Notes: generated by a model from the letters alone, not told the origin. Shown: positions 1 to 13,261, counted from the first letter of the stretch. The stretch: DNA of 64,000 nucleotides from Solirubrobacterales bacterium (GCA_040900615.1 JBBDYP010000080.1:20090-84089); one strand, 5' to 3'. Translations and numbers: made by a program.

Positions 1-961
1 CGCCGAGGGATGTCGTCGGCTCGCGGGGGACAGCGGCTTGAGGACCATCCCCCTCTCCGAGAACCATCGCTCCTCTCAGAAGCTCTGCGATGTCGCTGCC
101 AACTTCAGCCGCCGGCAGGCCGACGTCGCGGTCGGCGAGAATCGAGATTGCGCCATCGAGCCCGAGCTCTTCCTTTATCCCCCGGATGACCCGCAGGCCG
201 CCGTCGCGCATTACCGGCATCGCCTGGAGGTCCACGAGATCGAGTGCTCGGAGGCGGCGCTGCTGGCGCGCAGTCACGCGATGCGCGTCCGGCTCGGGGG
301 CCAGCGCGAGCTGGTCGCTGTGAAACCCAAACCTCAGATGGTTGGCGAACTCGCCGCGGCCCTGGCGGCAGGGCGACTTGACCGGGTTCATCTAGGAAGG
401 GCCGAGGCCCTGATCGCCTGGGGCGCTTTCGACCTCAACCCCGCCGAGCTCGACCCGGAGACACGAGAGGAGGTGGCGCGCGCGACCAGGCGCTTCATCG
501 GGGCGCTTCCTGGGTTCGATGGCGATCTCCGCAGTTGGATCATCGCCGCACGTGAGTCCTACGGGGCCGCTCTCGATGCAGTGACTTCGGCACCCGCGCA
601 CAAGCCAGGAAACGCTCTTGCGAGCAGCGCCAGCCACGCTGACTTTGAAGCGGCCGAGGTCTTCGCGCCGCCGCCGGCCGACCTCCTTCCCCAGACGGTT
701 CACGCGCTTAAGGGAGAGGACCGCGAGGCGGTGATGGTCGTCCTCAAGAAGCACCACGGCAACGATCGGTCCGACCAGCTGCAGCTGATCCATTCGGTGC
801 TCGACGGAGAGGAGAGCTCAGAGGTAGACGAAGAGGAGCGGCGTATCGTCTACGTCGCCCTGACCCGCGCCGAACGGTTCTGCCTTCTTGCGCTGCCCGA
901 CGACCCGAAGGGTCGCGCGCTGGCCGCCCGGTGTGAATCGATCGGATTCACCGTGCGCTGA
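1..961 (+). CDS. UvrD/Rep-type superfamily-1 helicase, C-terminal part (5' end lies outside the window; frame open from base 2)
   Basis: The reading frame has no stop back to the window edge. The translation carries SF1 helicase motifs LSENHRSSQKL (motif IV-like), TVHALKGEDREAVMVV (motif V-like) and RIVYVALTRAERF (motif VI). Confidence 0.75.
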   Translation, partial: AEGCRRLAGDSGLRTIPLSENHRSSQKLCDVAANFSRRQADVAVGENRDCAIEPELFLYPPDDPQAAVAHYRHRLEVHEIECSEAALLARSHAMRVRLGGQRELVAVKPKPQMVGELAAALAAGRLDRVHLGRAEALIAWGAFDLNPAELDPETREEVARATRRFIGALPGFDGDLRSWIIAARESYGAALDAVTSAPAHKPGNALASSASHADFEAAEVFAPPPADLLPQTVHALKGEDREAVMVVLKKHHGNDRSDQLQLIHSVLDGEESSEVDEEERRIVYVALTRAERFCLLALPDDPKGRALAARCESIGFTVR

Positions 962-2204
962 GCGCCGCCGTCGGTGTGGTCTCCTGGAGGAGCCCCACGT
1001 CCGCTCGCGATCGCCTCAGGCAAGTCACTGGCAACGCGGAGGCACCTAGCTGCCAGCGTGCTGGAGACGACTCTTTGAAACAGCCGGCGCGAAGTGCAAT
1101 CTCAACGAAGGCTTCACTCTCTTTGATCTGGGCTCGGGGCAGCGCCTCCGTCAGCTCGGCCGCTGACATTTGGCCGTGCGGCGCGCGTGCCAGGTGGTGC
1201 ATCGCCAGGCGGGTCCACGCCGCACCGCGATTGCTCGCCGCCAACTGCTCCGGGCCGGGCACGTCGGGGGTCATGCGCGCGAAATCTGAGTAGGCGGCCT
1301 GGTACCTCGAGTAGGCATAAATGAGGCCGAAGCCGAACTCAACGGCAGCGTCACCGATCTTCTGCCTCGTAGCGGTTGAGGGTGGCCGCGCCCAGAGCAC
1401 CCCGGCAAGGCCGATCCCAAGTGCCGCCAGCACCCAGGGCGAGAAGCGATCAGCGATCCGCCGTGCGCCGGCGAGCAGGCCAGCGCCAGCGGCCATCGGA
1501 AGCGCCCCGGCCGAAAAGATCAGTTTCCCCAGCTGGCCGACGTCCCCACCGGCCATCAGGCATTGGAGCCATGCGTGATGAACGCTGCGGTCGACCTCCT
1601 CGCCGTAGACGGCGCGCAGGGCTGGTCCGTCCTCGCTCAGGTAGAAGGCCTCGATGGCGAGCGCCAGGGTCACTGACGGGATGTCGTCGGGGTCAGCCTG
1701 CTCCAGCGTCCGCACCCGCGCGACCTCGGCCGCGTCGAGCAGGTGTCGTGGAAGATCACGGTCCTCGATGACGCGGATCAGCGGCAGGTATTCCGAGCGC
1801 CACCGTGCCTTGAGCTGGTCAGGGGTGACTCCATCCGATTCCAGCGCCCATAGCTCGGCGTACTCGACCAGCTCATCGAGAACATGCGACGCAGCGAACA
1901 GGCGGATCGCCCCGGAGTTGGCCGCCGTGACCAGGACAGTGCGGCGGTCGTTTTCGCAGGCGTAGCGAAGGTCGTTGCGAAGGACGTTTGCATCGACGAC
2001 CACCGGCGGGACTCTTTGATCAAGGGGCCCTGGGCGCCAGGCCGAAGGGAAGGCACCGTACTCATCCGGACCGTTGATCGGCTCAGTCGCCGCATGCACG
2101 TGGCTGGCTCTCAGCACTCGCTCGACGGCCAGCATCACTCGCTGCTCGCCAGGCGACGGAGTGGAGCCAGCGAAGTAAGTCTGTGGTCTTGGGTGCACTG
2201 CCAT
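948..2204 (-). CDS. PIN-like domain protein with central hydrophobic segments and a C-terminal helical domain
   Basis: ORF 948..2339; the ATG at 2204 (MAVHPRPQ) is preferred because it removes the overlap with the upstream gene. VVVDANVL, SHVLDEL and DPDDIPSVTLALAIEAFYLSEDG resemble the PIN acidic-residue pattern. GALPMAAGAGLLAG and VLAALGIGLAGVLW are TM-like stretches. Confidence 0.5.
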   Translation of the reverse strand: MAVHPRPQTYFAGSTPSPGEQRVMLAVERVLRASHVHAATEPINGPDEYGAFPSAWRPGPLDQRVPPVVVDANVLRNDLRYACENDRRTVLVTAANSGAIRLFAASHVLDELVEYAELWALESDGVTPDQLKARWRSEYLPLIRVIEDRDLPRHLLDAAEVARVRTLEQADPDDIPSVTLALAIEAFYLSEDGPALRAVYGEEVDRSVHHAWLQCLMAGGDVGQLGKLIFSAGALPMAAGAGLLAGARRIADRFSPWVLAALGIGLAGVLWARPPSTATRQKIGDAAVEFGFGLIYAYSRYQAAYSDFARMTPDVPGPEQLAASNRGAAWTRLAMHHLARAPHGQMSAAELTEALPRAQIKESEAFVEIALRAGCFKESSPARWQLGASALPVTCLRRSRADVGLLQETTPTAALSAR

Positions 2205-2316
2205 GGATACCCAACGATTGCAGTTGGCCAAGACTGACGGGAGGCGGTCGCAGCTCTCGCGATGCGCTTGAGCCGGCCCGCTGGCATCACTCGATGGACG
2301 CTCGATGTGGGTAGCG

Positions 2317-3327
2317 TCAGCCCCCCGCCTCCGGACCACCCGAGCCAGTCAGATCGAGCAGCGCGGGATTGTCGGTCTCTTTTGCGAGAGCAGGCAGGGC
2401 AAGACCGGGTCGGATTCGATACCAGCTCCTCCAGAAAAGGCCGGCAACTCCTGGCGCCTGCCGGCGGGCCACGAGCTTTTGTAATGCGGCGCCCTCCCAC
2501 GCTCGCACGAGCGGGAGCTCGACGACGGGGCGGTCCAAGTTCGTGCCGGTCGGCTCACCCTCGGCGCTCCATTCCCAGACGAGCTGCAGCGCATGGTAAG
2601 CCCAGTGACTGCGCACGATGGTCGCCTTGTGCTCGTCGCGCGTGACCTCGCCGGTGATTGGGCCGAGGAACAGGTTTCCCGAGGTTCCGTGCGGAGTCGG
2701 GTTCTCTTTCAACAGTTGATTGATCGCGCCGAAGACGGCGTCGAGCTCGAAGGAGAGCACGAGGCCGGGCGGAAACTCGCCGCCGTCGAGGTAGCACGCA
2801 AACGAGCTCGGCACCTCGAAGCCGCAATCGGCGATCCGACAGCCGATGTGCTTGACGAAGTAGCGACAAACCTTCTCTGCGAGGCTTGCCCAGTCGGAGT
2901 CGATCTCCTCGAGCGGGAGTAGGCGGGAGGTTTCGACAGCGTCCTCGCTTTCGGCGAACCAGCCCACCAGGCGGTCGTAGGCCCGATCGAAGGGCTGGCT
3001 GCGGGCGTTATTGCAGCTGGCGCAGAAGACATCCTTGAATTTCACGGCACCGGCCTTCGGTCCTGCGACGGTTGTGGTCCGGTCGCCGCGACGGACGATC
3101 ACTTCGCCCTCGTTGTACTCCTCCCTGGAGAACTCGCGGCGCAGGTCGGTTGCCTTATATCGATGCTCTCGCGACCCTGCCGCCCCTTCACACCACCAGC
3201 AGGTGCCGGCGTGGTCGTGGCGACAGAGTGGAGGCGTGCTCGCTGCGGGCACGATCAACACTGTAAGTCCTGGGTGAATTGAGTTTGAGAATGTCGAGGA
3301 GCGGCATGGGCAAAGCGCCGGTTGCAT
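2317..3327 (-). CDS. hypothetical protein with an HNH-like zinc-finger nuclease signature (CxxC .. EH .. CxxCN)
   Basis: ORF 2317..3399; the ATG at 3327 or a GTG/TTG slightly downstream are plausible starts. Motifs CWWCEGAAGSREH and CASCNNARS are present. The roughly 230-aa C-terminal region has no motif I recognise. Confidence 0.4.
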   Translation of the reverse strand: MQPALCPCRSSTFSNSIHPGLTVLIVPAASTPPLCRHDHAGTCWWCEGAAGSREHRYKATDLRREFSREEYNEGEVIVRRGDRTTTVAGPKAGAVKFKDVFCASCNNARSQPFDRAYDRLVGWFAESEDAVETSRLLPLEEIDSDWASLAEKVCRYFVKHIGCRIADCGFEVPSSFACYLDGGEFPPGLVLSFELDAVFGAINQLLKENPTPHGTSGNLFLGPITGEVTRDEHKATIVRSHWAYHALQLVWEWSAEGEPTGTNLDRPVVELPLVRAWEGAALQKLVARRQAPGVAGLFWRSWYRIRPGLALPALAKETDNPALLDLTGSGGPEAGG

Positions 3328-3344
3328 GGATTCGGCGTGTTGGT

Positions 3345-3365
3345 CAGAATCGCGCGTACATTCTG
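3345..3365. promoter_or_regulatory. inverted repeat CAGAAT-N9-ATTCTG in the divergent intergenic region between the HNH-like gene and the 431-aa gene
   Basis: Read directly: cagaat (3345-3350) and attctg (3360-3365), in a comparatively AT-rich spacer. Confidence 0.3.
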
Positions 3366-3426
3366 CGTTGGTGAGGAGCCGCGCACCGGGAGAGCGCATA
3401 GCAACCGGGGAAGGGGTGCGTTATAG

Positions 3427-4722
3427 ATGAACATCGCCTTGCTCCACTTGCGCCTTAATGCTCAATACGAGGCGCTCGAGTACGGAGGCACCTTCACCGC
3501 CGTCTTGCCTGCCGGCGGAAGGAGTTGGGGGCAGCGGCGGCCGACCCTTCTCCTCTCGGGTGGGGAGATCGTCGAGCTGGGCCATGTCAGGGCCGAGGGC
3601 AAACGTATCGCCACCGGCATGCGGCGGATGCGCTACGAGCGCCTCCTCGCGCTCGACCCCGAGATCTCGGTCGCCGAGGTCGTGAGCAATCTGAGCTCCT
3701 CCATCCGACACCATTTCGAAGCCCGGCTAGGCGAAGACGTTGTTTTACCCGAGCGCACCAGCGCCGCCGTGGTCGAGGCCCTGGAGTCGCTCAGCGATGA
3801 GGTGGCTGAGGTCAGCGCTGACTTCCTGCGCCCGGTAGTGAGGCGAGTGCGGAGACTTGATGGGGCAGCGCTTCAGGCGACCGCCCAGGAGGCCGACGCG
3901 GTCCGCCTTGCACTCGACATCGCCGGCATCCCAAGACAGGAGCTGCACGGCACGCGCCCGGACGGCGAGACCCCCTATGTCCAGGCTCTCTCCGAAGTGC
4001 GGGTCTTTGAGGATCAGGCGATCGACTACGACGCCGGGAGGTTCCTGGACTTCGAGCGGATTGAGCGCCCCAACGGGATGGTTCATTTCTCCCGCGGCGC
4101 GGAGCGCCTAACCGTCCTCAACGTCAACCGCCGCCCACTTGAGCGGCTGACCGGCGCCGATCTGATCTACCACAACGAGACCCACGACAGTTTCGTCCTT
4201 GTCCAGTACAAGACGATGACTCGCGAGGGTGATCTCGGCGATACGCGCCTTGTCTATCGACCGGACTCCGACCGGAATCTCGCCGGCGAGCTAGAGCGGA
4301 TGCGTGCGCTTGCTGAGGTCCCCGGCGATGGCAGCGCGGAGCAGTGGCGGCTGAACCCGGGCTTCTGCTTCATCAAGCTCTGCCGGCCGGTTCTCAATCT
4401 CGACTACCCCGAGCGGGAGCTAGTCGGAGGCATGTATCTGCCGCTTTCCTATTGGGACCTACTCGTCGCCTCGCCTGTCACCGTAGGCCCGCGAGGCGGC
4501 AGCGTGCTGAGCTACGAGACGGTCACGCGCCGCTTCGACAACTCTCTGTTCGTCCAGCTAGTTCGCGGCAGCTGGCTCGGCTCACGGGCGGAGACGACCG
4601 AGACGATCACTGATTTGGTCCTTCAGGGACTCGACGCCAACCGCTCGGTGACCGTCGCCTCGGCGTGGAGCGTCGCGCCGACGCAGGGCGAGCCGCAAGA
4701 GGAAGTGGCTCGGGGTCAATGA
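3427..4722 (+). CDS. hypothetical 431-aa protein; possible Mrr/PD-(D/E)xK-type nuclease core
   Basis: The ATG at 3427 is preceded by GGGGAAGGGG. Amino-acid composition is coherent and non-repetitive. GADLIYHNETHDSFVLVQYK fits a D-x(n)-QxK restriction-endonuclease-fold pattern. Confidence 0.5.
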   Translation: MNIALLHLRLNAQYEALEYGGTFTAVLPAGGRSWGQRRPTLLLSGGEIVELGHVRAEGKRIATGMRRMRYERLLALDPEISVAEVVSNLSSSIRHHFEARLGEDVVLPERTSAAVVEALESLSDEVAEVSADFLRPVVRRVRRLDGAALQATAQEADAVRLALDIAGIPRQELHGTRPDGETPYVQALSEVRVFEDQAIDYDAGRFLDFERIERPNGMVHFSRGAERLTVLNVNRRPLERLTGADLIYHNETHDSFVLVQYKTMTREGDLGDTRLVYRPDSDRNLAGELERMRALAEVPGDGSAEQWRLNPGFCFIKLCRPVLNLDYPERELVGGMYLPLSYWDLLVASPVTVGPRGGSVLSYETVTRRFDNSLFVQLVRGSWLGSRAETTETITDLVLQGLDANRSVTVASAWSVAPTQGEPQEEVARGQ

Positions 4723-4871
4723 TCCGGAGCCACAATCCACCAGAATCGCCCGGCATCCACAGGAATCTCTCCGCTTTCGCGGGAGCTGCTACGCTTGGGT
4801 AGTGAGCGCATTTTTCCCATTTTAGAGCGCTTTTCCAGCGCCTGGAACCCCGGAATCACAACACTCCGACC

Positions 4872-4918
4872 GACGACTGAAAATCGTGGTGTCGTGGGTT
4901 CGATTCCCACCCTCGCCA
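4872..4918 (+). tRNA. orphan 3' half of a tRNA-Phe(GAA) gene (not a complete tRNA); putative att remnant
   Basis: Anticodon loop CTGAAAA (GAA at 4879-4881), variable region GTGTC, T arm GTGGG-TTCGATT-CCCAC, 3' acceptor CCTCGCC plus discriminator A. No complementary GGCGAGG and no D arm occur upstream. Confidence 0.6.
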
Positions 4919-4973
4919 TCGCCGCTCCCGGGCCCCGCGGGCACCGGAAGCTCAGGCTGACACGCCGGCCGTC

Positions 4974-5531
4974 TTACACACGCCGGTAGCGAACGTAGAC
5001 CACGCGAGAGCCAAACGTCCGTGTCTCGACCAGCTCCAGGGTGATCCTCTCGTCCAGGGCCGGGAAGTAAGGCGTGCCTCCGCCCAGGACGACCGGGCTG
5101 ACGAAGAGCCGGTACTCGTCGATGAGGCCCAGGCTGATGAAGGTGGAGGCCAGGCCAGCGCCGCCGACGGCCAGGTCCTTTCCTGGCTGTTCCTTCAGCT
5201 TGGCGAGCTCTTCGGCAACGCCGCCCCTGACCAGCCTGGCATTGCCCTCGACCTTCTCGAGGGTCTTCGAGAACACGATCTTCGGCAAGTTCTTCCAGAT
5301 GCGGGCGAACTCGAGCTCGTGCTCCGCGGCCGACGGGTTCTCCTCAGCGGTCTCCCAGTACGCCATCTCCTCGTAAAGCCGCCGTCCGCAGAGGTGCGCG
5401 CCGATCTCCCGCGTCTGCTGGTTATGGAACCGATGCAGCTCCTCGTCCGGCGCCGACCAGTCGATCTCGCCGCCCGGCCCAGCGATGAAGCCATCCAGCG
5501 ACACTCCCATCGAGTAGATCAGCTTGCGCAT
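4974..5531 (-). CDS. dihydrofolate reductase family protein (RibD C-terminal domain type)
   Basis: MRKLIYSMGVSLDGFIAGPGGEIDW ... LFVSPVVLGGGTPYF is typical of this family. The strong RBS AAGGAGGA lies 5 nt upstream of the ATG at 5531. Confidence 0.85.
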   Translation of the reverse strand: MRKLIYSMGVSLDGFIAGPGGEIDWSAPDEELHRFHNQQTREIGAHLCGRRLYEEMAYWETAEENPSAAEHELEFARIWKNLPKIVFSKTLEKVEGNARLVRGGVAEELAKLKEQPGKDLAVGGAGLASTFISLGLIDEYRLFVSPVVLGGGTPYFPALDERITLELVETRTFGSRVVYVRYRRV

Positions 5532-5695
5532 CACGGTCCTCCTTGGTTGGCGCCCATTCTTCCGTGATCTCCGCGATGCGGGTTTCCCGGTCCGGGACCG
5601 CGGCGCATCACCGATGGCGCCTCAGCTCCAGACGCCTAGCCTGGCATTGCCGACTGCGCGAGAGAAGCGCTTTCCCGCCGAGGAGGAACAGGGTC

Positions 5696-7066
5696 ATGAG
5701 CGCGCCGAGTCGTCAATCGATGCCAGCCGCGGACGCGGCCTGGCTGCACATGGATCGTTCGACCAACCCGATGGTGGTGAACGGGCTGGTGACGCTCGGA
5801 GAGACGCCGGCGGTCGAAGCGGTGGCCGAGGTGATCGAGGAGCGGTTGGTGGGGCGGTATCCCCGCTTCGGGCAGCGCGTTGTCGATCAACTCGGCCGCG
5901 CCCCTGCGTTCGAGGACGATCCGTTCTTCGATCTCAGGAACCACCTGCACCGGCGGATGCTGCCGGCGCCCGGGGACCAGGGGGCGCTGGAGGCGATGGT
6001 CAGCGACCTGATCACCTCGCCGCTCGATCCCGGCAAGCCCCTCTGGCACGCCTTCTTGATCGAGGGGTACGACGGCGGCTCGGCGATGCTCTGGCGCATC
6101 CACCACTGCATCGCCGACGGGATCGCGCTCGCGCAGGTGATGCTGTCGATCACGGACCGGCCTGAGTCGGGCCGGCAGCGAGCGGCGCCGGCCCCGCCTG
6201 AGCACGGCATCCTCGCCCGGGCCACGGCGGCGCCCGGCGAGGCCGCCTCCGCGGCCCGGGCGCTCGCCGGCGCCGCGGTCCACGAGGGCGCGGAGTCGCT
6301 CGCCCACCCCCGGCATCTGCGCGAGCTCGCCGGCGCCGCCCTCCGCGACGTCTCCACGGCGGCGAAGCTCCTCGCCTCCCCCGCGGACGCGCCCAGCACG
6401 CTGCGCCGGCCGCTCTCGGGCGCGCGGCGGGTGGCGTGGTCGGCGCCCTTCCCGCTGGACCGGGTCAAGGACGCCTGCCACCGGCGCCGCGTCACCGTCA
6501 ACGACATGCTGCTGAGCGCCCTCGCCGCCACCCTCGCCGAGAGCCTGAGGGGGGACGGCCTGCCGCGGGAGGAGATCCACGCGATGGTCCCGGTCAACCT
6601 GCGCCCGCTCGATCGGCCGGTCCCCGCCGACCTCGGCAACGACTTCGCCCTGATCCTGCTGGAGCTGCCGGTCGGCGACCTGCGGCCCGCCGAGCGCCTG
6701 CGCCAGGTGAACAGCCGCATGAACGCGATCAAGGACTCGCACGAGGCGCCGATCTCCTTCGGCCTCCTCAACGCGATCGGGATGACGCCGCCCTGGGTCG
6801 AGGACCGTCTGATCGGCTTCTTCACCGACAAGGCGAGCCTGGTCGTCACCAACGTCCCCGGCCCCAGCGAGCAGCTGAGCTTTGCCGGCGCCCCGGTCAC
6901 CGGCGTCCTCGTCTGGGCCCCCTGCTCGGGCAGCATCGGAATGACCGTCAGCATCTTCAGCTACGCCGGCGAGGTCACCGTCGGCTTCATGGCCGACACC
7001 GCCCTCGTCCCGGACCCCGAGCCGCTGGCGCGCAGCTACGAGGCCGAGCTGGAGCGACTCTGCTGA
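5696..7066 (+). CDS. wax ester synthase/diacylglycerol acyltransferase (WS/DGAT) family protein
   Basis: HHCIADG (HHxxxDG active-site motif) and the C-terminal TNVPGP motif are present. The ATG at 5696 is preceded by AGGAGGA. Confidence 0.85.
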   Translation: MSAPSRQSMPAADAAWLHMDRSTNPMVVNGLVTLGETPAVEAVAEVIEERLVGRYPRFGQRVVDQLGRAPAFEDDPFFDLRNHLHRRMLPAPGDQGALEAMVSDLITSPLDPGKPLWHAFLIEGYDGGSAMLWRIHHCIADGIALAQVMLSITDRPESGRQRAAPAPPEHGILARATAAPGEAASAARALAGAAVHEGAESLAHPRHLRELAGAALRDVSTAAKLLASPADAPSTLRRPLSGARRVAWSAPFPLDRVKDACHRRRVTVNDMLLSALAATLAESLRGDGLPREEIHAMVPVNLRPLDRPVPADLGNDFALILLELPVGDLRPAERLRQVNSRMNAIKDSHEAPISFGLLNAIGMTPPWVEDRLIGFFTDKASLVVTNVPGPSEQLSFAGAPVTGVLVWAPCSGSIGMTVSIFSYAGEVTVGFMADTALVPDPEPLARSYEAELERLC

Positions 7067-7965
7067 TCTACTCCCCGGCGGAAGCGCGCAACGGTCACCG
7101 AGACGAGGTCGGTGTGCTCGCCGGCGAGCGCGGTGAGGTCGGGATCGTGGTGGGCGCTGGGCCCCATCAGGGCGAGGCGGCGGGCGTCATCCTCGGAGAG
7201 GGCGATCTCGTACTCGACGGTGGCGGCGCCGGCGAGGTCGAACCACGGCTCGAGGCGCTCCGTGAGGCGGTCCAGCTTGTCCTCCTGAATGCCGATCAGG
7301 GTCAGCCGCTCGCGCAGGCGCTCGAGATGGCGGGGACCGGCGAGGGCGACGACCAGCCCACCGCCGGGCCGGGTGACGCGGCCGAGCTCGGGACCGGGCC
7401 TCGGGGCGAAGGCCGAGAGCACCAGGTCGGCGGCTGAGTCGCGGAGGGGGATCGCCTCTTCGACATCCGCGACGACGAAGCGGAGGTCGGGGTGGCGCCG
7501 GGCCGCGTGCGCGGCCGCCGCCTTGGAGAGGTCGAAGCCGAAGCCGCACCCGGGCCCTGAGCCACGCTCGCGCAGGGCGCGGACCACCGCGTCGAGGTAG
7601 TAGCCGGTTCCGGAGCCGACCTCGGCGACGACTGTCGCTCGGGCGGTGGCCTCGGCGGCTCCCGCCGCCGCCTCTCCCGCCGCCTCCTCGGGTCCGCACA
7701 CCGCCTCGACCGCCGCCGCCCGAACCGCCGCGGCGATCGGCTCGTAATGGCCCGTCGCCAGGAACTCCGCCCGCGCCCGCACCATCTCCGCCGTGTCGCC
7801 GACCCGTCCGCGACCGCCGCTCCTCCGCGTCAGGTTGAGATACCCCGACCGCGCGTAGTCGAAGGAGTGGCCCTCGGGGCAGCGAGCGCTGCCGCCGGCG
7901 TCGGCGAGCGGACTTGCGCACACCGGGCACGACAGAAGTGTGGTGCAGGGCTCGCGGTTATCCAC
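7036..7965 (-). CDS. RlmA-type 23S rRNA (guanine-N1)-methyltransferase-like protein
   Basis: N-terminal zinc ribbon CPVCASPL..CPEGHSFDYARSGYLNL, then SAM motif VAEVGSGTGYY. The GTG at 7965 is chosen as start; the ORF extends to 8526 only as an off-frame shadow. Confidence 0.75.
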   Translation of the reverse strand: MDNREPCTTLLSCPVCASPLADAGGSARCPEGHSFDYARSGYLNLTRRSGGRGRVGDTAEMVRARAEFLATGHYEPIAAAVRAAAVEAVCGPEEAAGEAAAGAAEATARATVVAEVGSGTGYYLDAVVRALRERGSGPGCGFGFDLSKAAAAHAARRHPDLRFVVADVEEAIPLRDSAADLVLSAFAPRPGPELGRVTRPGGGLVVALAGPRHLERLRERLTLIGIQEDKLDRLTERLEPWFDLAGAATVEYEIALSEDDARRLALMGPSAHHDPDLTALAGEHTDLVSVTVARFRRGVDQQSRSSSAS

Positions 7966-8022
7966 TCGGGGGTCGCCGACTCGACCTCGGTCCTCGGCCG
8001 CACCATACTTCCACCCAGGACC

Positions 8023-9390
8023 ATGCCGGCCTCGATCCCAGCGATTGCGCGCAGTCGCCTCCCCGAGCTCCTCGCCCGCGAGGAAACCCTGTTCGCCGAG
8101 CGTCACCCGCGCTCGCGCGAGCTCTTCGAGCAGGGGTCCGCGGCGCTCCTTGCCGGGGTCCCGATGAGCTGGATGTCGCGCTGGGCCGGCCCGCACCCCG
8201 TCTACCTCGACCGCGCCGAGGGGGCCGAGGTCCTCGACGTCGACGGCAACGCCTACGCGGACCTCTGCCTCGGCGATACCGGGGCGATGGCCGGCCACGC
8301 CCCGGCGCCGGTTCTGGAGGCCGTGCGCGAGCGCTACGCGAGCGGGGCCACGGCGATGCTGCCGACTGCGGACGCGGGCTGGGTCGCAGAGGAGCTGAGC
8401 CGCCGCTTCGGGACGCTGCGCTGGCAGTTCACCCTCACCGCCACCGACGCCAACCGCTTCGCGATCCGCGTCGCCCGCCATCTCACCGGGCGGCCGAAGG
8501 TCCTGGTCTTCAACTACTGCTACCACGGCACCGTCGACGAGAGCTTCGCGACGCTGCGCGGCGGCGAGGTCGTCGCCCGCGAGGGCAACGTCGGGCCGCC
8601 CGTCCCGCTGGCGGAGACGACGCGAGTGGTCGAGTTCAACGACCTGGCGGGCCTCGAGCGCGAGCTGGCGGTGGGCGACGTCGCCTGCGTCCTGACCGAG
8701 CCGGCGCTAACCAACATCGGCATCGTCCTGCCAGACGAGGGCTTCCACGACGGCCTGCGCGAGCTGACCGCCGCCGCCGGGACGCTGCTCGCGATCGACG
8801 AGACCCACACGCTCAGCGCCGGCCCCGGCGGTTGCACGCGCCGCTGGGGCCTGCGGCCCGACATGGTCACGCTCGGCAAGGCGATCGCCGGCGGCGTCCC
8901 GGCCGGCGCCCTCGGGATGAGGCCGGAGCTTGGGGCGCGCCTGCTCGGCGCACCCGACGCCGACGTCGAGGACACCGGCGGCGTCGGCGGCACCCTCGCC
9001 GGCAACGCCCTCTCCCTCGCCGCGGCCCGGGCCACGCTGGCCGAGGTGCTCGACGACTCCGCCTGGGAGCGCACCGAGCCGCTGGCCGCCCGCCTCGTCG
9101 CCGCGGTCGAGGAGGCGCTGCGTCGCCACGGGGTCGGCTGGCACATCGTCCAGCTCGGCTGCCGGGCCGAGTACCGGTTCTCGCCCGAGCCGCCTCGCAA
9201 CGGCGGCGAGGCCGCGGCGCTCGGCGACCCCGAGCTGGAGCGCTACCTGCACCTCTACGCGCTCAACCGCGGCGTCTTGATCGCGCCCTTCCACAACATG
9301 GCGCTGATCTGCCCGGCGACGCGGGCGGAGCACGTCGACCGCCACACCGAAGCGTTCGACGGCGCCTTGCGCGAGCTGCTCTCAGCCTGA
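8023..9390 (+). CDS. class III (PLP-dependent) aminotransferase, glutamate-1-semialdehyde aminomutase-like
   Basis: DLCLGDTGAMAGH, NYCYHGTVDE, IDETHT and TLGKAIAGG (PLP lysine context) are present. The ATG at 8023 lies within ORF 7747..9390. Confidence 0.8.
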   Translation: MPASIPAIARSRLPELLAREETLFAERHPRSRELFEQGSAALLAGVPMSWMSRWAGPHPVYLDRAEGAEVLDVDGNAYADLCLGDTGAMAGHAPAPVLEAVRERYASGATAMLPTADAGWVAEELSRRFGTLRWQFTLTATDANRFAIRVARHLTGRPKVLVFNYCYHGTVDESFATLRGGEVVAREGNVGPPVPLAETTRVVEFNDLAGLERELAVGDVACVLTEPALTNIGIVLPDEGFHDGLRELTAAAGTLLAIDETHTLSAGPGGCTRRWGLRPDMVTLGKAIAGGVPAGALGMRPELGARLLGAPDADVEDTGGVGGTLAGNALSLAAARATLAEVLDDSAWERTEPLAARLVAAVEEALRRHGVGWHIVQLGCRAEYRFSPEPPRNGGEAAALGDPELERYLHLYALNRGVLIAPFHNMALICPATRAEHVDRHTEAFDGALRELLSA

Positions 9391-9407
9391 GCGCGGAGCG
9401 GCCGCGG

Positions 9408-10145
9408 TCAGCCCCCGGTCGCCGAGAAGTGCTGGAAGTCCTTCGGCCAGGTCCAGTCGCCGCCCCACTCCCAGCCGGCATCGGCGAACGCCTCCACGAC
9501 CGGGCCCTCCCGGTGGATCAGCCCGGGGACCCGGCGGGAGCGGTCGGCGAAGCGGGCGCCGGCCGGCGGCGAGACGTAGCCATCGCCGCTCGCGTAGGGG
9601 TTCTCGATCGGGTTGACGTCGATCGCCCGGCCGTAGGCGTGCTCGGACCAGCGGTCGGTGCCGGAGACGAAGCGGCAGTTGAAGGCGGAGGTGTTGTCGG
9701 CGTCCATGCTGTGGTGGTCGTCGGCGCCGTAGGCGTCGACGAGGCGCATCCGCCGGATCGGGAAACGCAGCCGGTAGAGCTTGCGCATGACGCCGAGCAT
9801 CTCCTGGGCGGAATCGCGGTTGACGACCAACCGGCCGCGATGGACATCGCCGTCGAATCCCCAGTGGCTGACGCTGAGCAGGCGCAGCTCGTCGAGGCCG
9901 ACCGGGCAGCCGCGGTGCCAGGAGACGCCGGTCATCCGCTGCCTCGTCTCGGGATCGATCGGCGCCGCGTGGCCGCGGAAGTGCGGGGAGGTGTCGGCCC
10001 GCGGGGCGGCTTCGGTCGGTGGGGAGGTAGCCGCTCGCGGCGCGCTCGGCACCGAGCTGCCGAGCAGCGTCAGGGCGGCGATGCCGAGCGCGAGCAGGCT
10101 CACCTGGCGGCGCCCGCTATTTCGCCTGCGTGACCGCAAACGCAA
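9408..10145 (-). CDS. secreted M15-family metallopeptidase (VanY/D-Ala-D-Ala carboxypeptidase-like)
   Basis: Arg-rich n-region plus hydrophobic signal peptide. SEHAYGRAIDVNP and WEWGGDW..DFQHF are typical of M15 peptidases. The start is TTG at 10145. Confidence 0.8.
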   Translation of the reverse strand: MRLRSRRRNSGRRQVSLLALGIAALTLLGSSVPSAPRAATSPPTEAAPRADTSPHFRGHAAPIDPETRQRMTGVSWHRGCPVGLDELRLLSVSHWGFDGDVHRGRLVVNRDSAQEMLGVMRKLYRLRFPIRRMRLVDAYGADDHHSMDADNTSAFNCRFVSGTDRWSEHAYGRAIDVNPIENPYASGDGYVSPPAGARFADRSRRVPGLIHREGPVVEAFADAGWEWGGDWTWPKDFQHFSATGG

Positions 10146-10782
10146 CCGAGACCGTGGACGCCGGGGTGCAGTCGGGATCCCCGAAGACTTTGGCGGAGAT
10201 GGTCTGGGTGACGCCGGGGCTGGTCAGGCCGATCGGGGCGGTCGCGCCGGTAACCGGCAAGAGGCCGGTCGGGAACTCCGGGGTCGGGGCGAAGGCGACG
10301 ACGAGAAGGGCGCCTTCGGCCACGTCCCACTGGCTGCCGTTGACGAAGGGGACGACCCTGGCCGCGCATGCTTCTTCGCCGACGCGGCCGAGGTTTTCGC
10401 CCTTGGCTTCGACGCTGAGGAAGTCGACTGCTTCGGCGGTCGGGGTGAAGCTGGTGGTGCCGGTGAGGGTGACGGTCACCGGAGCGGAGCCGGACGCCGG
10501 GACCGGCCCGCCGCTGGCCCTGGCGATCACGTTGGCGCCCGTCGCGAGTTTGGCGAAGGTGACCGCGCCATCCTTGATCTTCGCCGTGGTCACGGCTTTG
10601 GCCCGGATTTTCGCCGTGGTCACCGCGTTGCGCTTGATCTTGCCGGCGCTGACCGAGTTCGCCTTCAGCTTCTTGGCGCCGATCTTCCCCGACGCCCAGA
10701 CGACCCCGCCGCTGAGGGCCAGGAACAGGGCCAGCGTCGCGATCACGTTGGCGTAGGTCAGTCGCCGCCTCACCGCTTCCAT
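10117..10782 (-). CDS. membrane-anchored hypothetical protein with 4 x 10-aa tandem repeats
   Basis: The ATG at 10782 is preceded by AAGGAGG. N-terminal TM segment VIATLALFLALSGGVVW. Repeats are NSVSAGKIKR/NAVTTAKIRA/KAVTTAKIKD/GAVTFAKLAT. Confidence 0.55.
   Translation of the reverse strand: MEAVRRRLTYANVIATLALFLALSGGVVWASGKIGAKKLKANSVSAGKIKRNAVTTAKIRAKAVTTAKIKDGAVTFAKLATGANVIARASGGPVPASGSAPVTVTLTGTTSFTPTAEAVDFLSVEAKGENLGRVGEEACAARVVPFVNGSQWDVAEGALLVVAFAPTPEFPTGLLPVTGATAPIGLTSPGVTQTISAKVFGDPDCTPASTVSVAFAVTQAK
10543..10674 (-). repeat. 30-nt (10-aa) tandem coding repeat, about 4 copies
   Basis: tcgccgtggtcac recurs at 10581 and 10611, with a degenerate copy near 10641. The repeats are periodic in the translation. 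Confidence 0.6.
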
Positions 10783-10891
10783 GCGTGCCTCCTTGGCTGC
10801 GTTCGCTCGAAGCCTCTTCAGCCAAAATAGCGGCGCCACGACCAGAATGTGGACATTCGGCTGTCCTGCGGCGCTGATAGGAGCTTCTGTA

Positions 10892-11296
10892 ATGCGGATG
10901 CCTCGACTCGACCGGCGGGAGCTGGCGGCTATCTACGCCGGTGGGGTGGTCGGGGCGCTGGCCCGGGTCGGGCTGGCTGAGGCGGCGCCGCACGGAGCCG
11001 CCGCCTGGCCCTGGGCGACCTTCGCCGCCAACATGGCCGGGGCGCTGCTGCTCGGCTACTTCGTCACCCGGCTGCAGGAGCGCCTGCCGCCGTCGAGCTA
11101 CCGGCGGCCGTTCCTCGGCACCGGGCTGTGCGGGGCGCTGACCACCTTCTCGACCCTGCAGCTGGAGCTGTTCGACATGCTCGAGGCTGGGCGGCTGGGG
11201 CTGTCGGCGGCCTACGTCGCGGCGACGCTGGCCGGCGGCTTCGCCTGCGTCCACCTGGCGACGGCGGCGGTGCGGCGCACGAGGACGGCCCGGTGA
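10892..11296 (+). CDS. crcB: fluoride ion channel CrcB/FluC, subunit 1
   Basis: LGTGLCGALTTFSTLQLE is the hallmark CrcB motif. The protein is small with 4 TM segments. The ATG at 10892 has the RBS-like sequence TAGGAGC upstream. Confidence 0.85.
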   Translation: MRMPRLDRRELAAIYAGGVVGALARVGLAEAAPHGAAAWPWATFAANMAGALLLGYFVTRLQERLPPSSYRRPFLGTGLCGALTTFSTLQLELFDMLEAGRLGLSAAYVAATLAGGFACVHLATAAVRRTRTAR

Positions 11297-11658
11297 GCGC
11301 CGCCGCCTGGATCGCGGTGGCGCTGCTCGGCGGGGTCGCGGCGCTGGCCCGCTTCGTGCTCGACGCGGCGATCTCCGAGCGGTTCGCCGGCCCGTTCCCG
11401 GCCGGGACGCTGGCCGTCAACCTCAGCGGCGCCGCCCTCCTCGGCCTGCTCGCCGGCGCCGCCCTGCACGGCACCGCGCTGACCGTCGTCGCCGGCGGCG
11501 GCCTCGGCTCCTACACCACCTTCTCGACCTGGATGTTCGAGTCCCACCGGCTCGGCGAGGTCGGCGACGCGCGGGCGCTCTGGCTCAACATCGTCCTCTC
11601 ACTGCTCGCCGGGCTGGCGGCGGTGGCGCTCGGCCACTGGCTCGGAGGCCTGCTGTGA
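11293..11658 (+). CDS. crcB: fluoride ion channel CrcB/FluC, subunit 2
   Basis: The GTG at 11293 overlaps the stop of the first crcB (GTGA). GLGSYTTFSTWMFE motif is present. Confidence 0.85.
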   Translation: MSAAAWIAVALLGGVAALARFVLDAAISERFAGPFPAGTLAVNLSGAALLGLLAGAALHGTALTVVAGGGLGSYTTFSTWMFESHRLGEVGDARALWLNIVLSLLAGLAAVALGHWLGGLL

Positions 11659-12719
11659 CGGCTGCGGCGGGGGGCGACGCCCTCAAGCTCGTCTTCTACT
11701 TCGGCGAGCACGACCGCCACCGCGGCCGCTTCCTCTCGGAGGCCGTCCTCGACCGCTTCGAGCGCCACCGGCTCGCGGCCGGCGTGCTGCTGCGGGGTGT
11801 CGAGGGCTTCGGCGCGCACCAGCGCCTCCAGACCGACCGCCTGCTCTCGCTCTCGGAGGACCTGCCGCTCGTCGCCACCGCGGTCGACCGCCCGGAGAGG
11901 ATCGAGGCCGTCGCCGCCGAGCTGGCCGGGCTCGCCGGCAAGGGCCTGCTGACCCTGGAGCGTGCGCGGCTCGCGGGAAGCGATCGCCGTCCCGAGGACG
12001 AACCCCACGGCGAGGTGAAGCTGACGGTCTATCTGGGACGGGGCGCTCGGCGCGGAGGCATGCCCGCCCACGTCAGCGTCGTCGCGGCCCTGCACCGCCA
12101 CGGCGTCGCCGGGGCGACGGCGCTGATCGGCGTCGACGGCGCCGCCGCGGGGCGCCGGCTCCGCGCCCGCTTCCTCTCCGCCAACAGCTGGGTGCCGGCG
12201 CTGGTCGTCGCGGTCGGCCGGCGCGAGCGGATCGCCGCCGCGCTTCGCGAGCTGGAGAGCGAAGGCGACCCAGCCCTGGCGACCCTCGAGGCGGTGCGGG
12301 TCTGCCGCCGCGACGGCACCGCGTTGGCGCTCCCACCCGACCCGCCTCCAGCGTTCCGTGGTTCCTCATCGACCGATGTGGTGCAAGAGGAACCACGGAC
12401 CGGACCCTGGACCAAGCTCAGCGTCTACTGCTCGGAGCGCTCCGAGCACGAGGGGCACCCGCTGTACCTGGAGCTGATCCGCCGCCTCCGGGCCGAGGGA
12501 GCGGCGGGCGCCACCGCGCTTCGCGGCGTCTGGGGCTACCACGGCGACCATGCCCCCCACGGCGACCGCCTGATGGCACTGCGCCGCCACGTCCCCGTCC
12601 TCACCACGCTGATCGACACTCCCTCGCGAAGCGAGCGCTGGTTCGAGATCGCCTCCGAGCTGACCGCGGAGACCGGTCTGCTGACCGCGGAGTCCGTTCC
12701 CCGGATCTTTACTTTGTAA
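11655..12719 (+). CDS. protein made of three tandem DUF190 (COG1993, PII-like) domains
   Basis: The GTG start overlaps the crcB2 stop. Three internally similar ~100-aa units begin KLVFYFGEHD, KLTVYLGRGA and KLSVYCSERS. Each contains a G(A/V)AGATAL/GVLLRGVxGxG-type segment. Confidence 0.7.
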   Translation: MTAAAGGDALKLVFYFGEHDRHRGRFLSEAVLDRFERHRLAAGVLLRGVEGFGAHQRLQTDRLLSLSEDLPLVATAVDRPERIEAVAAELAGLAGKGLLTLERARLAGSDRRPEDEPHGEVKLTVYLGRGARRGGMPAHVSVVAALHRHGVAGATALIGVDGAAAGRRLRARFLSANSWVPALVVAVGRRERIAAALRELESEGDPALATLEAVRVCRRDGTALALPPDPPPAFRGSSSTDVVQEEPRTGPWTKLSVYCSERSEHEGHPLYLELIRRLRAEGAAGATALRGVWGYHGDHAPHGDRLMALRRHVPVLTTLIDTPSRSERWFEIASELTAETGLLTAESVPRIFTL

Positions 12720-12781
12720 TCACTCCAAATTGGATAGGCTGGCCATGTGACCCGAACTGCATCAAGTTCCCCACCTGGCAG

Positions 12782-13261
12782 ATGGAGAGGTTGATGCAGT
12801 TCGCGCTCGCCAGTAGGGAGCAGATCGCCGAGCAGCTGCGCCGCCGCGGGCTGCGCGCGACCGGGCCGCGGGTCTCCGTCTACGCCGCGGTCGAGAGCCT
12901 TCCCGGCCACCCCGACGTGCAGGAGATCCTCGCCCGGGTCCACGAAAGCGGCGACCCCGTCTCCACCCAGGCGGTCTACGACTGCCTCGCGACCCTCGCC
13001 TCCGCCGGCCTGCTGCGGCGGATCGAGCCGGCCGGCAGCCCGGCTCGCTACGAGACCCGCGTCGGCGACAACCACCACCACATCGTCTGCCGGGCTTGCG
13101 GCGCGACCCGGGACGTCGACTGCGTCGCCGGCGCCGCGCCTTGCCTCGAGCCCGGCAGCGCCGGCGGCTTCGCCGTCGACGAGGCCGAGGTGACCTTCTG
13201 GGGCCTGTGCCCCGAGTGCCAGGCGGCAGCGACCCCGGCCGCCGCCAGTACCCAAGCCTGA
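12782..13261 (+). CDS. Fur-family transcriptional regulator (PerR/CatR-like)
   Basis: HHHIVCRACG ... CPEC metal-binding motifs and a winged-helix N-terminus. It lies immediately upstream of the catalase gene. Confidence 0.85.
   Translation: MERLMQFALASREQIAEQLRRRGLRATGPRVSVYAAVESLPGHPDVQEILARVHESGDPVSTQAVYDCLATLASAGLLRRIEPAGSPARYETRVGDNHHHIVCRACGATRDVDCVAGAAPCLEPGSAGGFAVDEAEVTFWGLCPECQAAATPAAASTQA

Follow-up and report, generated by a model that had tools for sequence, protein, structure and literature searches.

Two adjacent genes, here called gene A and gene B, lie on the minus strand of a 64,000-nucleotide (nt) stretch of DNA from a Solirubrobacterales bacterium (GCA_040900615.1, JBBDYP010000080.1:20090-84089; this whole stretch is referred to as the window, and positions are counted from its first letter). 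A preliminary description of the window had presented them as a two-gene operon and candidate defence module, in which an HNH-like zinc-finger protein is followed by a membrane-associated PIN-domain protein. Both open reading frames (ORFs) were found where they had been placed, together with all of the motifs quoted for them, and both genes are real, conserved and under purifying selection, with ratios of nonsynonymous to synonymous substitutions (dN/dS) of 0.30 for gene A and 0.21-0.37 for gene B. They are, however, independent neighbours and do not form a conserved two-gene defence system. The features on which the argument rests are the following.

2317..3261, minus strand: gene A, 314 amino acids (aa), GTG start at 3261; NCBI product P0001, 100% identical
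2986..3201, minus strand: zinc/histidine-metal (His-Me)-like motif of gene A, residues 21-92, with columns invariant or nearly so
2205..2316, minus strand: spacer between A and B, 112 nt, kept upstream of B in islands without A
948..2204, minus strand: gene B, 418 aa from the ATG at 2204 (Logan call); the NCBI call has 395 aa from 2135
1605..2006, minus strand: PIN domain (VapC-type, PIN_2) of gene B, Pfam PF10130, E 1.9e-5, above the gathering score
1389..1523, minus strand: two Ala/Gly-rich hydrophobic helices of gene B, residues 205-223 and 231-249
1047..1220, minus strand: winged-helix-like module of gene B, three helices and a beta-hairpin, with a conserved motif 'SAAEL...GRWQxG'

The claim of a module fails on co-occurrence: the pair is not conserved together, an outcome that the preliminary description itself had listed as refuting. 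At 55 genomic loci with an A homologue, the 10-kilobase (kb) flanks of which were searched by hidden Markov model for B, no B homologue was found within 10 kb (0/55). Among 67 metagenomic loci with a B homologue, gene A stood next to it at only one (1/67), L057, which belongs to a close relative (78%). Clustering of the neighbouring genes revealed no conserved partner gene for the A family or for the B family.

A second line of evidence comes from six versions of the island that harbours both genes, found in related organisms in which B is 77-90% identical. The gene order is C, A where present, B, a gene for a 159/174-aa transmembrane/zinc-ribbon protein where present, and then GajB and GajA of the Gabija system. 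Gene A is present in the window and in L123 (a Logan-assembled contig identical to the window across 1..4919), in L124 and in L057, and absent from L125, L056 and L126-128. The boundaries of this absence differ each time: in L125 window positions 3270..2313 are missing, which corresponds to the coding sequence (CDS) plus or minus about 10 nt and leaves a 5-nt junction microhomology; in L056 positions 3402..2240 are replaced by 47 base pairs (bp); and in L126-128 positions 3395..2473 are replaced by 45 bp while the final 156 nt of A remain. Because this 3' remnant is retained, the difference in L126-128 represents a loss of A, and the three distinct boundaries indicate three separate events of A absence. 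Gene B is intact where A is absent, shows dN/dS of 0.21-0.23 between the A-less islands and keeps the 112-nt upstream spacer. Since B is both intact and selected in islands without A, it does not need A.

The gene calls required some correction. The open frame of gene A extends over 2317..3399 (minus strand), and the ATG at 3327 that had been taken as its start is in frame but probably lies upstream of the true start. The GTG at 3261 fits better, because homologues carry just 10-20 residues before the CWWC motif and because the precise deletion in L125 starts 9 nt upstream of that GTG, directly upstream of an AGGA. For gene B, the open frame of which spans 948..2339 (minus strand), the previously proposed ATG at 2204 is supported over the NCBI start, because conservation reaches upstream of 2135 ('AGxTPSPGEQRVM' in homologues). 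In L126 (5949..6190; likewise in L127 and L128; protein P0066) a 484-aa 'B' call is extended N-terminally through the 3' remnant of A in another frame, which is likely a start-codon mis-annotation. The two genes are co-directional, and a consensus scan of 800..3600 found no terminator or sigma-70 promoter in the spacer between them, a negative that is uninformative for Actinobacteria.

The product of gene A is characterised by the motif C21-W-W-C24, E32-H33, K36, an insert of ~40 residues and C80-x-x-C83-N84-N85-x-R-S-Q-P-F-D92, and it carries the stretches CWWCEGAAGSREH and CASCNN. The motif stands as described earlier, but its first spacing, given as CWWCEG-x7-EH, is in fact CWWC-x7-EH (equal to CWWCEG-x5-EH); CASCNN begins 46 residues past H33. 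Homologues are numerous, with 61 found in the word-indexed search and a family of 1407 representatives at 50% identity (E <= 1e-3). In alignments of 46 and 132 family members, C21, W22, W23, C24, E32, H33, K36, C80, C83, N84, S88 and D92 are invariant or at least 90% conserved, N84 being invariant and E32-H33 at least 90% conserved, and F75, R87, Q89, Y134, K137 and C141 are further conserved positions in the family alignment. C21/C24 and C80/C83 form the two CxxC pairs of a predicted structural zinc site.

When family members were scanned one by one, HNH_5 (PF14279) gave sub-threshold matches in 14 of the 132 (best E 0.0026) and was thereby the most recurrent weak Pfam match. Any other family was matched by at most five members; the next were zinc-finger motifs with five and four members, zf-FCS and zf-RVT being recurrent among the weak matches, and Endonuclease_7 (PF02945) appeared in a single member at E 0.27. 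No member matched an HNH/His-Me family profile above its curated threshold. The AlphaFold2 (AF2) model of gene A is a confident one, with a predicted local distance difference test (pLDDT) score of 89.4 and a predicted template modelling (pTM) score of 0.87. Its secondary structure places H33 in a beta position and begins a helix at C80-R87, which is compatible with a beta-beta-alpha-metal fold, and the C-terminal ~230 aa are predicted to form an alpha/beta domain without a recognised fold. On these grounds we consider it fairly likely that gene A encodes a divergent HNH_5-like nuclease, whose hairpin would contain an insert of ~40 residues and whose C-terminal ~230 aa would form an alpha/beta domain. 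The HNH fold is suggested by the motif and the weak profile evidence, and the catalytic activity is a prediction. The HNH-like zinc motif of the preliminary description is borne out by the conserved columns and by weak profile evidence; no significant profile or fold match was found. Nine longer proteins of the A family (P0032, P0036, P0037, P0142, P0156, P0162, P0186, P0204 and P0209; 437-535 aa) carry a C-terminal extension of ~190 aa; no fused Pfam domain was found in longer homologues (417-535 aa), seven of the nine having been scanned (all except P0186 and P0204).

The closest characterised parallel to the motif is found in HNH_5 and T4 endonuclease VII, with which gene A has the layout CxxC - (D/E)H - CxxC-N in common. 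In T4 endonuclease VII these positions are C23/C26, D40-H41 and C58/C61-N62 (sequence checked against PDB 1e7d/1en7), residues whose functional roles are well established. Furthermore, the gene A segment 'GPKAGxVK..FCxxCNxAxxQ' resembles the endonuclease VII segment 'GPKAGKVRGLLCNLCNAAEGQ'. The differences are nevertheless considerable: the distance from EH to the second CxxC is about 46 residues in A versus about 16 in endonuclease VII, and gene A, unlike endonuclease VII, has WW within the first CxxC, the invariant K36, K137 and C141, and the ~230-aa C-terminal domain without structural neighbour. Another comparison is offered by the type IV (modification-dependent) HNH enzymes McrA and ScoMcrA, in which a solitary HNH nuclease with an extra domain is encoded on mobile DNA with no methyltransferase partner. 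These enzymes may serve as a mechanistic analogy for A as a lone nuclease that spares host DNA, although the domain order is reversed, the HNH part being N-terminal in A, and neither the Pfam scan nor Foldseek revealed any similarity of A to SRA, SBD or other reader domains.

Gene B, for which at least 75 homologues were found, carries a PIN domain with intact acidic active-site residues, an assignment that is well supported and bears out the earlier reading of its acidic pattern. The match to PIN_2 (PF10130) reaches 25.3 bits (cut-off 22.4) and covers residues 114-237 of a 463-aa ORF. The sequence contains VVVDANVL, SHVLDEL, DPDDIPSV and LSEDG, and the acidic residues are D48, E88, D148/D150/D151 and D169 (P0062 numbering), of which D48, D148, D151 and D169 are invariant in the family alignment and E88 and D150 at least 90% conserved. 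The AF2 model (pLDDT 83.8, pTM 0.82) retrieves PIN/VapC proteins as top Foldseek matches with probabilities of 0.9-0.99 and TM scores (target) of 0.48-0.62, although with weak E-values of 0.035-0.3; the PDB entries are 2fe1, 8ssg, 7vwo, 5ecw, 1v8o and 3tnd, and the proteins include PAE0151, HARP, the Mycobacterium tuberculosis and Shigella VapC, PAE2754 and SMG6. A PDB profile search with the B family returned calmodulin matches only, which were judged spurious.

Downstream of the PIN domain, the two hydrophobic helices reach Kyte-Doolittle 19-residue maxima of 1.64 and 1.72, which are borderline values. Homologues mostly lie between 1.4 and 1.9, and two have no segment above 1.4; the hydropathy is weakly conserved in the family, and the membrane association claimed for B is tentative. 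The AF2 model shows long helices with lower pLDDT at residues 190-230, and the two helices could pair as a hairpin that either lies in the membrane or is buried within the protein. A winged-helix fold of the C-terminus is suggested by the AF2 secondary structure together with conserved columns. Judged from its sequence, B would be expected to act as a ribonuclease (RNase), and any membrane association would likewise be a prediction.

In the literature PIN_2 has been placed among the VapC toxins (PMC5499597). Gene B resembles these toxins in that its score exceeds the PIN_2 gathering cut-off, all four acidic positions are present and its model superposes best on VapC and PAE PIN proteins. VapC toxins comprise ~130 aa, however, compared to 395-418 aa for B, and unlike in VapBC systems, B has no VapB-type antitoxin upstream and no conserved partner, and its PIN domain continues into hydrophobic helices and a winged-helix-like domain. 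The genes upstream of B at the 67 loci differ in size, strand and family, and none of them is conserved. A solitary PIN protein has been described in another context: DS-3 (DefensePredictor) is a validated one-protein PIN defence system without antitoxin, in which the PIN active site is needed for anti-phage defence and for which auto-inhibition has been proposed (PMC13092281). DS-3 and B, likened here by description, are both solitary PIN proteins without antitoxin, and DS-3 may be regarded as the best functional analogy for B.

The surroundings of both families were surveyed over two genes on either side at roughly 40-45 loci per family, comprising 150 proteins for A and 118 for B. The neighbours of A include Phage_integrase (6), TrwC relaxase, transposases, Mrr_cat, ResIII, OLD/AriA-type ATPases, a TIR protein with transmembrane segment (TIR-TM), type III restriction-modification and also housekeeping genes, and those of B include SNF2/DrmD-like helicases, HNH_5, HipA, DarT, the ABC-3C CTD7 domain, integrases and TrwC. 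Both A and B are accessory genes of mobile, defence-rich regions. A tblastn search with the A protein of the window matched only one of 50,697 phage records, and this partially (37% of the query, 34% identity, E 4e-7), for which reason A was rejected as a phage-borne gene; the same program found A-like solitary 'hypothetical protein' genes on 6 plasmids, one of them a conjugative Legionella plasmid. Gene B had no match in the phage or plasmid collections. In a peat-metagenome lineage with B homologues ~38% identical to B of the window, an HNH_5 gene adjoins the B homologue (L088 3..935, L090 2173..3108, L093 4020..4955, L094 8642..9577, L109 1..417). It is divergently oriented and encodes a 311-aa protein with a genuine HNH_5 domain (CPLC..TVEH..CRACNSRSGSQLD), the motif of which resembles that of gene A, and an unplaced C-terminal domain. 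This adjacency may be a defence-island coincidence or a recurrent HNH/PIN association.

The island itself is ~11.3 kb in length and flanked by a tRNA-Phe direct repeat, as the preliminary description had anticipated when it placed both genes in a putative tRNA-Phe island next to a helicase. This helicase is GajB of Gabija. Three further features of the window belong to it.

38..961, plus strand: C-terminal part of GajB (UvrD-type helicase of Gabija), PADLOC E 3.7e-23; its last 307 codons lie within the window
3427..4722, plus strand: gene C, 431 aa, oriented divergently to A and shared by all sister islands
4869..4921, plus strand: tRNA-Phe 3' fragment and island boundary, with anticodon loop CTGAAAA, T arm and acceptor 3' strand (fragment read as 4869..4918)

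GajA and the remainder of GajB sit beyond the left end of the window, and Gabija is complete on L123 (3959..7452), with a GajB of 568 aa (UvrD-type) and a GajA of 596 aa (AAA_15/AAA_21/OLD-TOPRIM). The tRNA-Phe fragment was found by reading the sequence and by its repeat on L123, as neither ARAGORN nor Rfam detected a complete tRNA in the window. The 48-bp direct repeat (89.6% identity) lies about 11.3 kb to the left, at L123 11321..11376, inside the 3' half of a genuine tRNA-Phe gene that is cut off by the end of the contig. The GC content is 64-68% over 1..6000 versus 70-76% over 6001..13000. No integrase gene was seen in the ~11.3-kb island. An ORF at 4716..4919 (minus strand) beginning 'MARVGIEPTT' is a spurious reading through the tRNA-Phe fragment. 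Gene C had been described as another nuclease-like gene, a description that finds no backing, as no significant family match was obtained in Pfam, PADLOC, NCBIfam or PHROGs; its best NCBIfam match, to the YraN family, is sub-threshold (E 0.0087, 16.2 bits versus a cut-off of 171). Of the island genes, it is under the strongest constraint (dN/dS 0.09-0.16). Outside the sister islands gene C stands beside no A or B homologue, and it was rejected as a partner of B because it is confined to those islands. On L123, positions 7771..11000 hold a Phage_P4_cII-like gene, a Beta_protein gene (PF14350, E 5.7e-54), a weakly HigB-like 115-aa gene and a gene with HTH_3 and Peptidase_M78 (ImmA/IrrE-type), a gene set that is typical satellite or integrative element cargo. 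A second variable cassette, which is not in the window, occurs between B and GajB (L056 7915..8439, L124 3896..4375, L126 7514..7993); its product has 159-174 aa, several hydrophobic helices and a C-terminal CPEC..CxC zinc-ribbon (weak UPF0547 match).

The explanation towards which we lean treats A and B as separate accessory cassettes of one gene each, lying in adjacent variable slots of the tRNA-Phe island, the constant core of which consists of gene C, gene B and Gabija. A defence role of either gene is suggested by context, namely the adjacent Gabija system and the mobile-element and defence neighbours. Gene A would then be a stand-alone, zinc-stabilised HNH_5-like His-Me-finger nuclease, in which C21/C24/C80/C83 would bind zinc, H33 would act as general base, N84 would bind the catalytic metal jointly with E32 or D92, and the ~40-residue insert would be located in the beta-hairpin. 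Its novel C-terminal alpha/beta domain might pick the target or restrain the nuclease by auto-inhibition, and a type IV-like, modification-dependent mode would be one plausible means by which such a solitary enzyme could leave host DNA uncut. Gene B would be a stand-alone, self-restrained VapC-type PIN ribonuclease without cognate antitoxin, whose C-terminal helical and winged-helix part could keep the PIN RNase inactive or autoregulated until a trigger such as infection or stress frees it, which would lead to growth arrest or abortive infection. In a more far-reaching form, the large A family would represent solitary zinc-dependent nucleases that constitute a new single-gene anti-phage or anti-plasmid restriction-like system, and B, independently of A, a one-protein abortive-infection RNase of PIN-winged-helix type, with neither of the two recognised by present defence catalogues; we regard this extension as tentative and rather doubtful.

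Several observations weigh against this explanation. PADLOC-DB v2 gave 0 matches at E <= 1 for A and B and hence no link to a validated defence system, and, in accordance with the preliminary description, no named defence system was matched by either gene, the A protein having no match in Pfam (E <= 10), PADLOC, NCBIfam or PHROGs and B matching no named system in the latter three. For a nuclease fold in A, searches of the PDB with sequence profiles of 46 and 132 family members returned nothing relevant, and Foldseek with the whole-chain model against PDB and BFVD found no neighbour (best E 0.09-0.2, TM score about 0.1); longin/roadblock-like matches (E 0.35-0.64, TM score about 0.1) were discarded as noise. 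Homology to T4 endonuclease VII was rejected, with hhalign probabilities of 14% (A1 versus the T4 sequence) and 4.8% (A4 versus the endonuclease VII family) in differing registers, as was homology to the HNH_5 neighbour of some B homologues (hhalign probability 1%). The defence association read from the neighbours is qualitative, covers two genes on either side and comes without a background control. Finally, A and B are co-directional, separated by 112 nt and adjacent in three related islands, and co-transcription and some lineage-specific interplay may occur.

Among the alternatives, the one that survives best holds that neither gene is defensive, A being a non-catalytic zinc-finger DNA-binding or regulatory protein and B a fused toxin-regulator that serves the mobile element in the manner of toxin-antitoxin (TA) addiction or maintenance. 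The lack of any defence-database match for either gene, the weak zf-FCS and zf-RVT matches that recur in the A family, the classification of PIN_2 proteins as TA toxins and the integrases and relaxases that adjoin both families would all agree with it. The invariant polar residues E32, H33, K36, N84, S88 and D92 beside the zinc site, however, look more like an active site than like an ordinary zinc finger. For B no antitoxin gene is present, and the genes around it belong to defence as much as to mobility. Together these points make this alternative unlikely.

An improbable alternative casts gene A as a selfish element, a free-standing HNH homing endonuclease without cellular function that became inserted between genes C and B. 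The clean, roughly CDS-sized presence or absence of A could be read in this way, as could the HNH-like motif in a solitary gene with variable neighbours that are often mobile elements. Against it, the 3' remnant in L126-128 is the mark of a deletion and not of an insertion, and all three boundaries differ; moreover, A occurs in one partial instance among the 50,697 phage records, neither multiple copies nor conserved target sites were seen, and its dN/dS is 0.30.

Even less probable is the proposal that B, and perhaps C, is an accessory part of the adjacent Gabija system. The order C, B, GajB, GajA is indeed kept in the window/L123, L124, L125, L056 and L126-128, but these islands are closely related (B 77-90% identical), so that the synteny reflects common descent; furthermore, about 60 other B loci lack GajA/GajB or C, and B is convergent with GajB and lies outside its operon. 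Gabija is the immediate neighbour in the island, but A and B have no PADLOC Gabija matches and stand outside the GajAB operon. Least likely of all is a genuine lineage-specific two-gene system in which an HNH DNase and a PIN RNase act together, or as sensor and executor, for which the shared direction and short spacer in the window/L123, L124 and L057 and the different HNH_5 gene lying divergently beside B homologues in L088/L090/L093/L094/L109 could be cited, but which is contradicted by the co-occurrence of 0/55 and 1/67, by three sister islands that lack A, with three different boundaries and with B intact at a dN/dS of about 0.2, and by the facts that B retains its own upstream spacer and that A has no recurrent PIN neighbour.

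Taken together, the pairing of A and B is incidental, and the false lead of a new two-gene defence system is thereby avoided. What the island offers are two uncharacterised and widely distributed families that reside in a genuine defence island beside Gabija, each of them gained and lost alone, and either may be a candidate for a defence system or toxin that consists of one gene. With its large size, its absence from Pfam, PADLOC and NCBIfam, and a confident model without known structural relative, the A family is a reasonable candidate for family definition. Gene B may add an actinobacterial member to the PIN effectors without antitoxin that are now emerging as a class. The sister islands, with their three boundaries around the missing gene A, represent a natural experiment on cassette turnover in defence hotspots.

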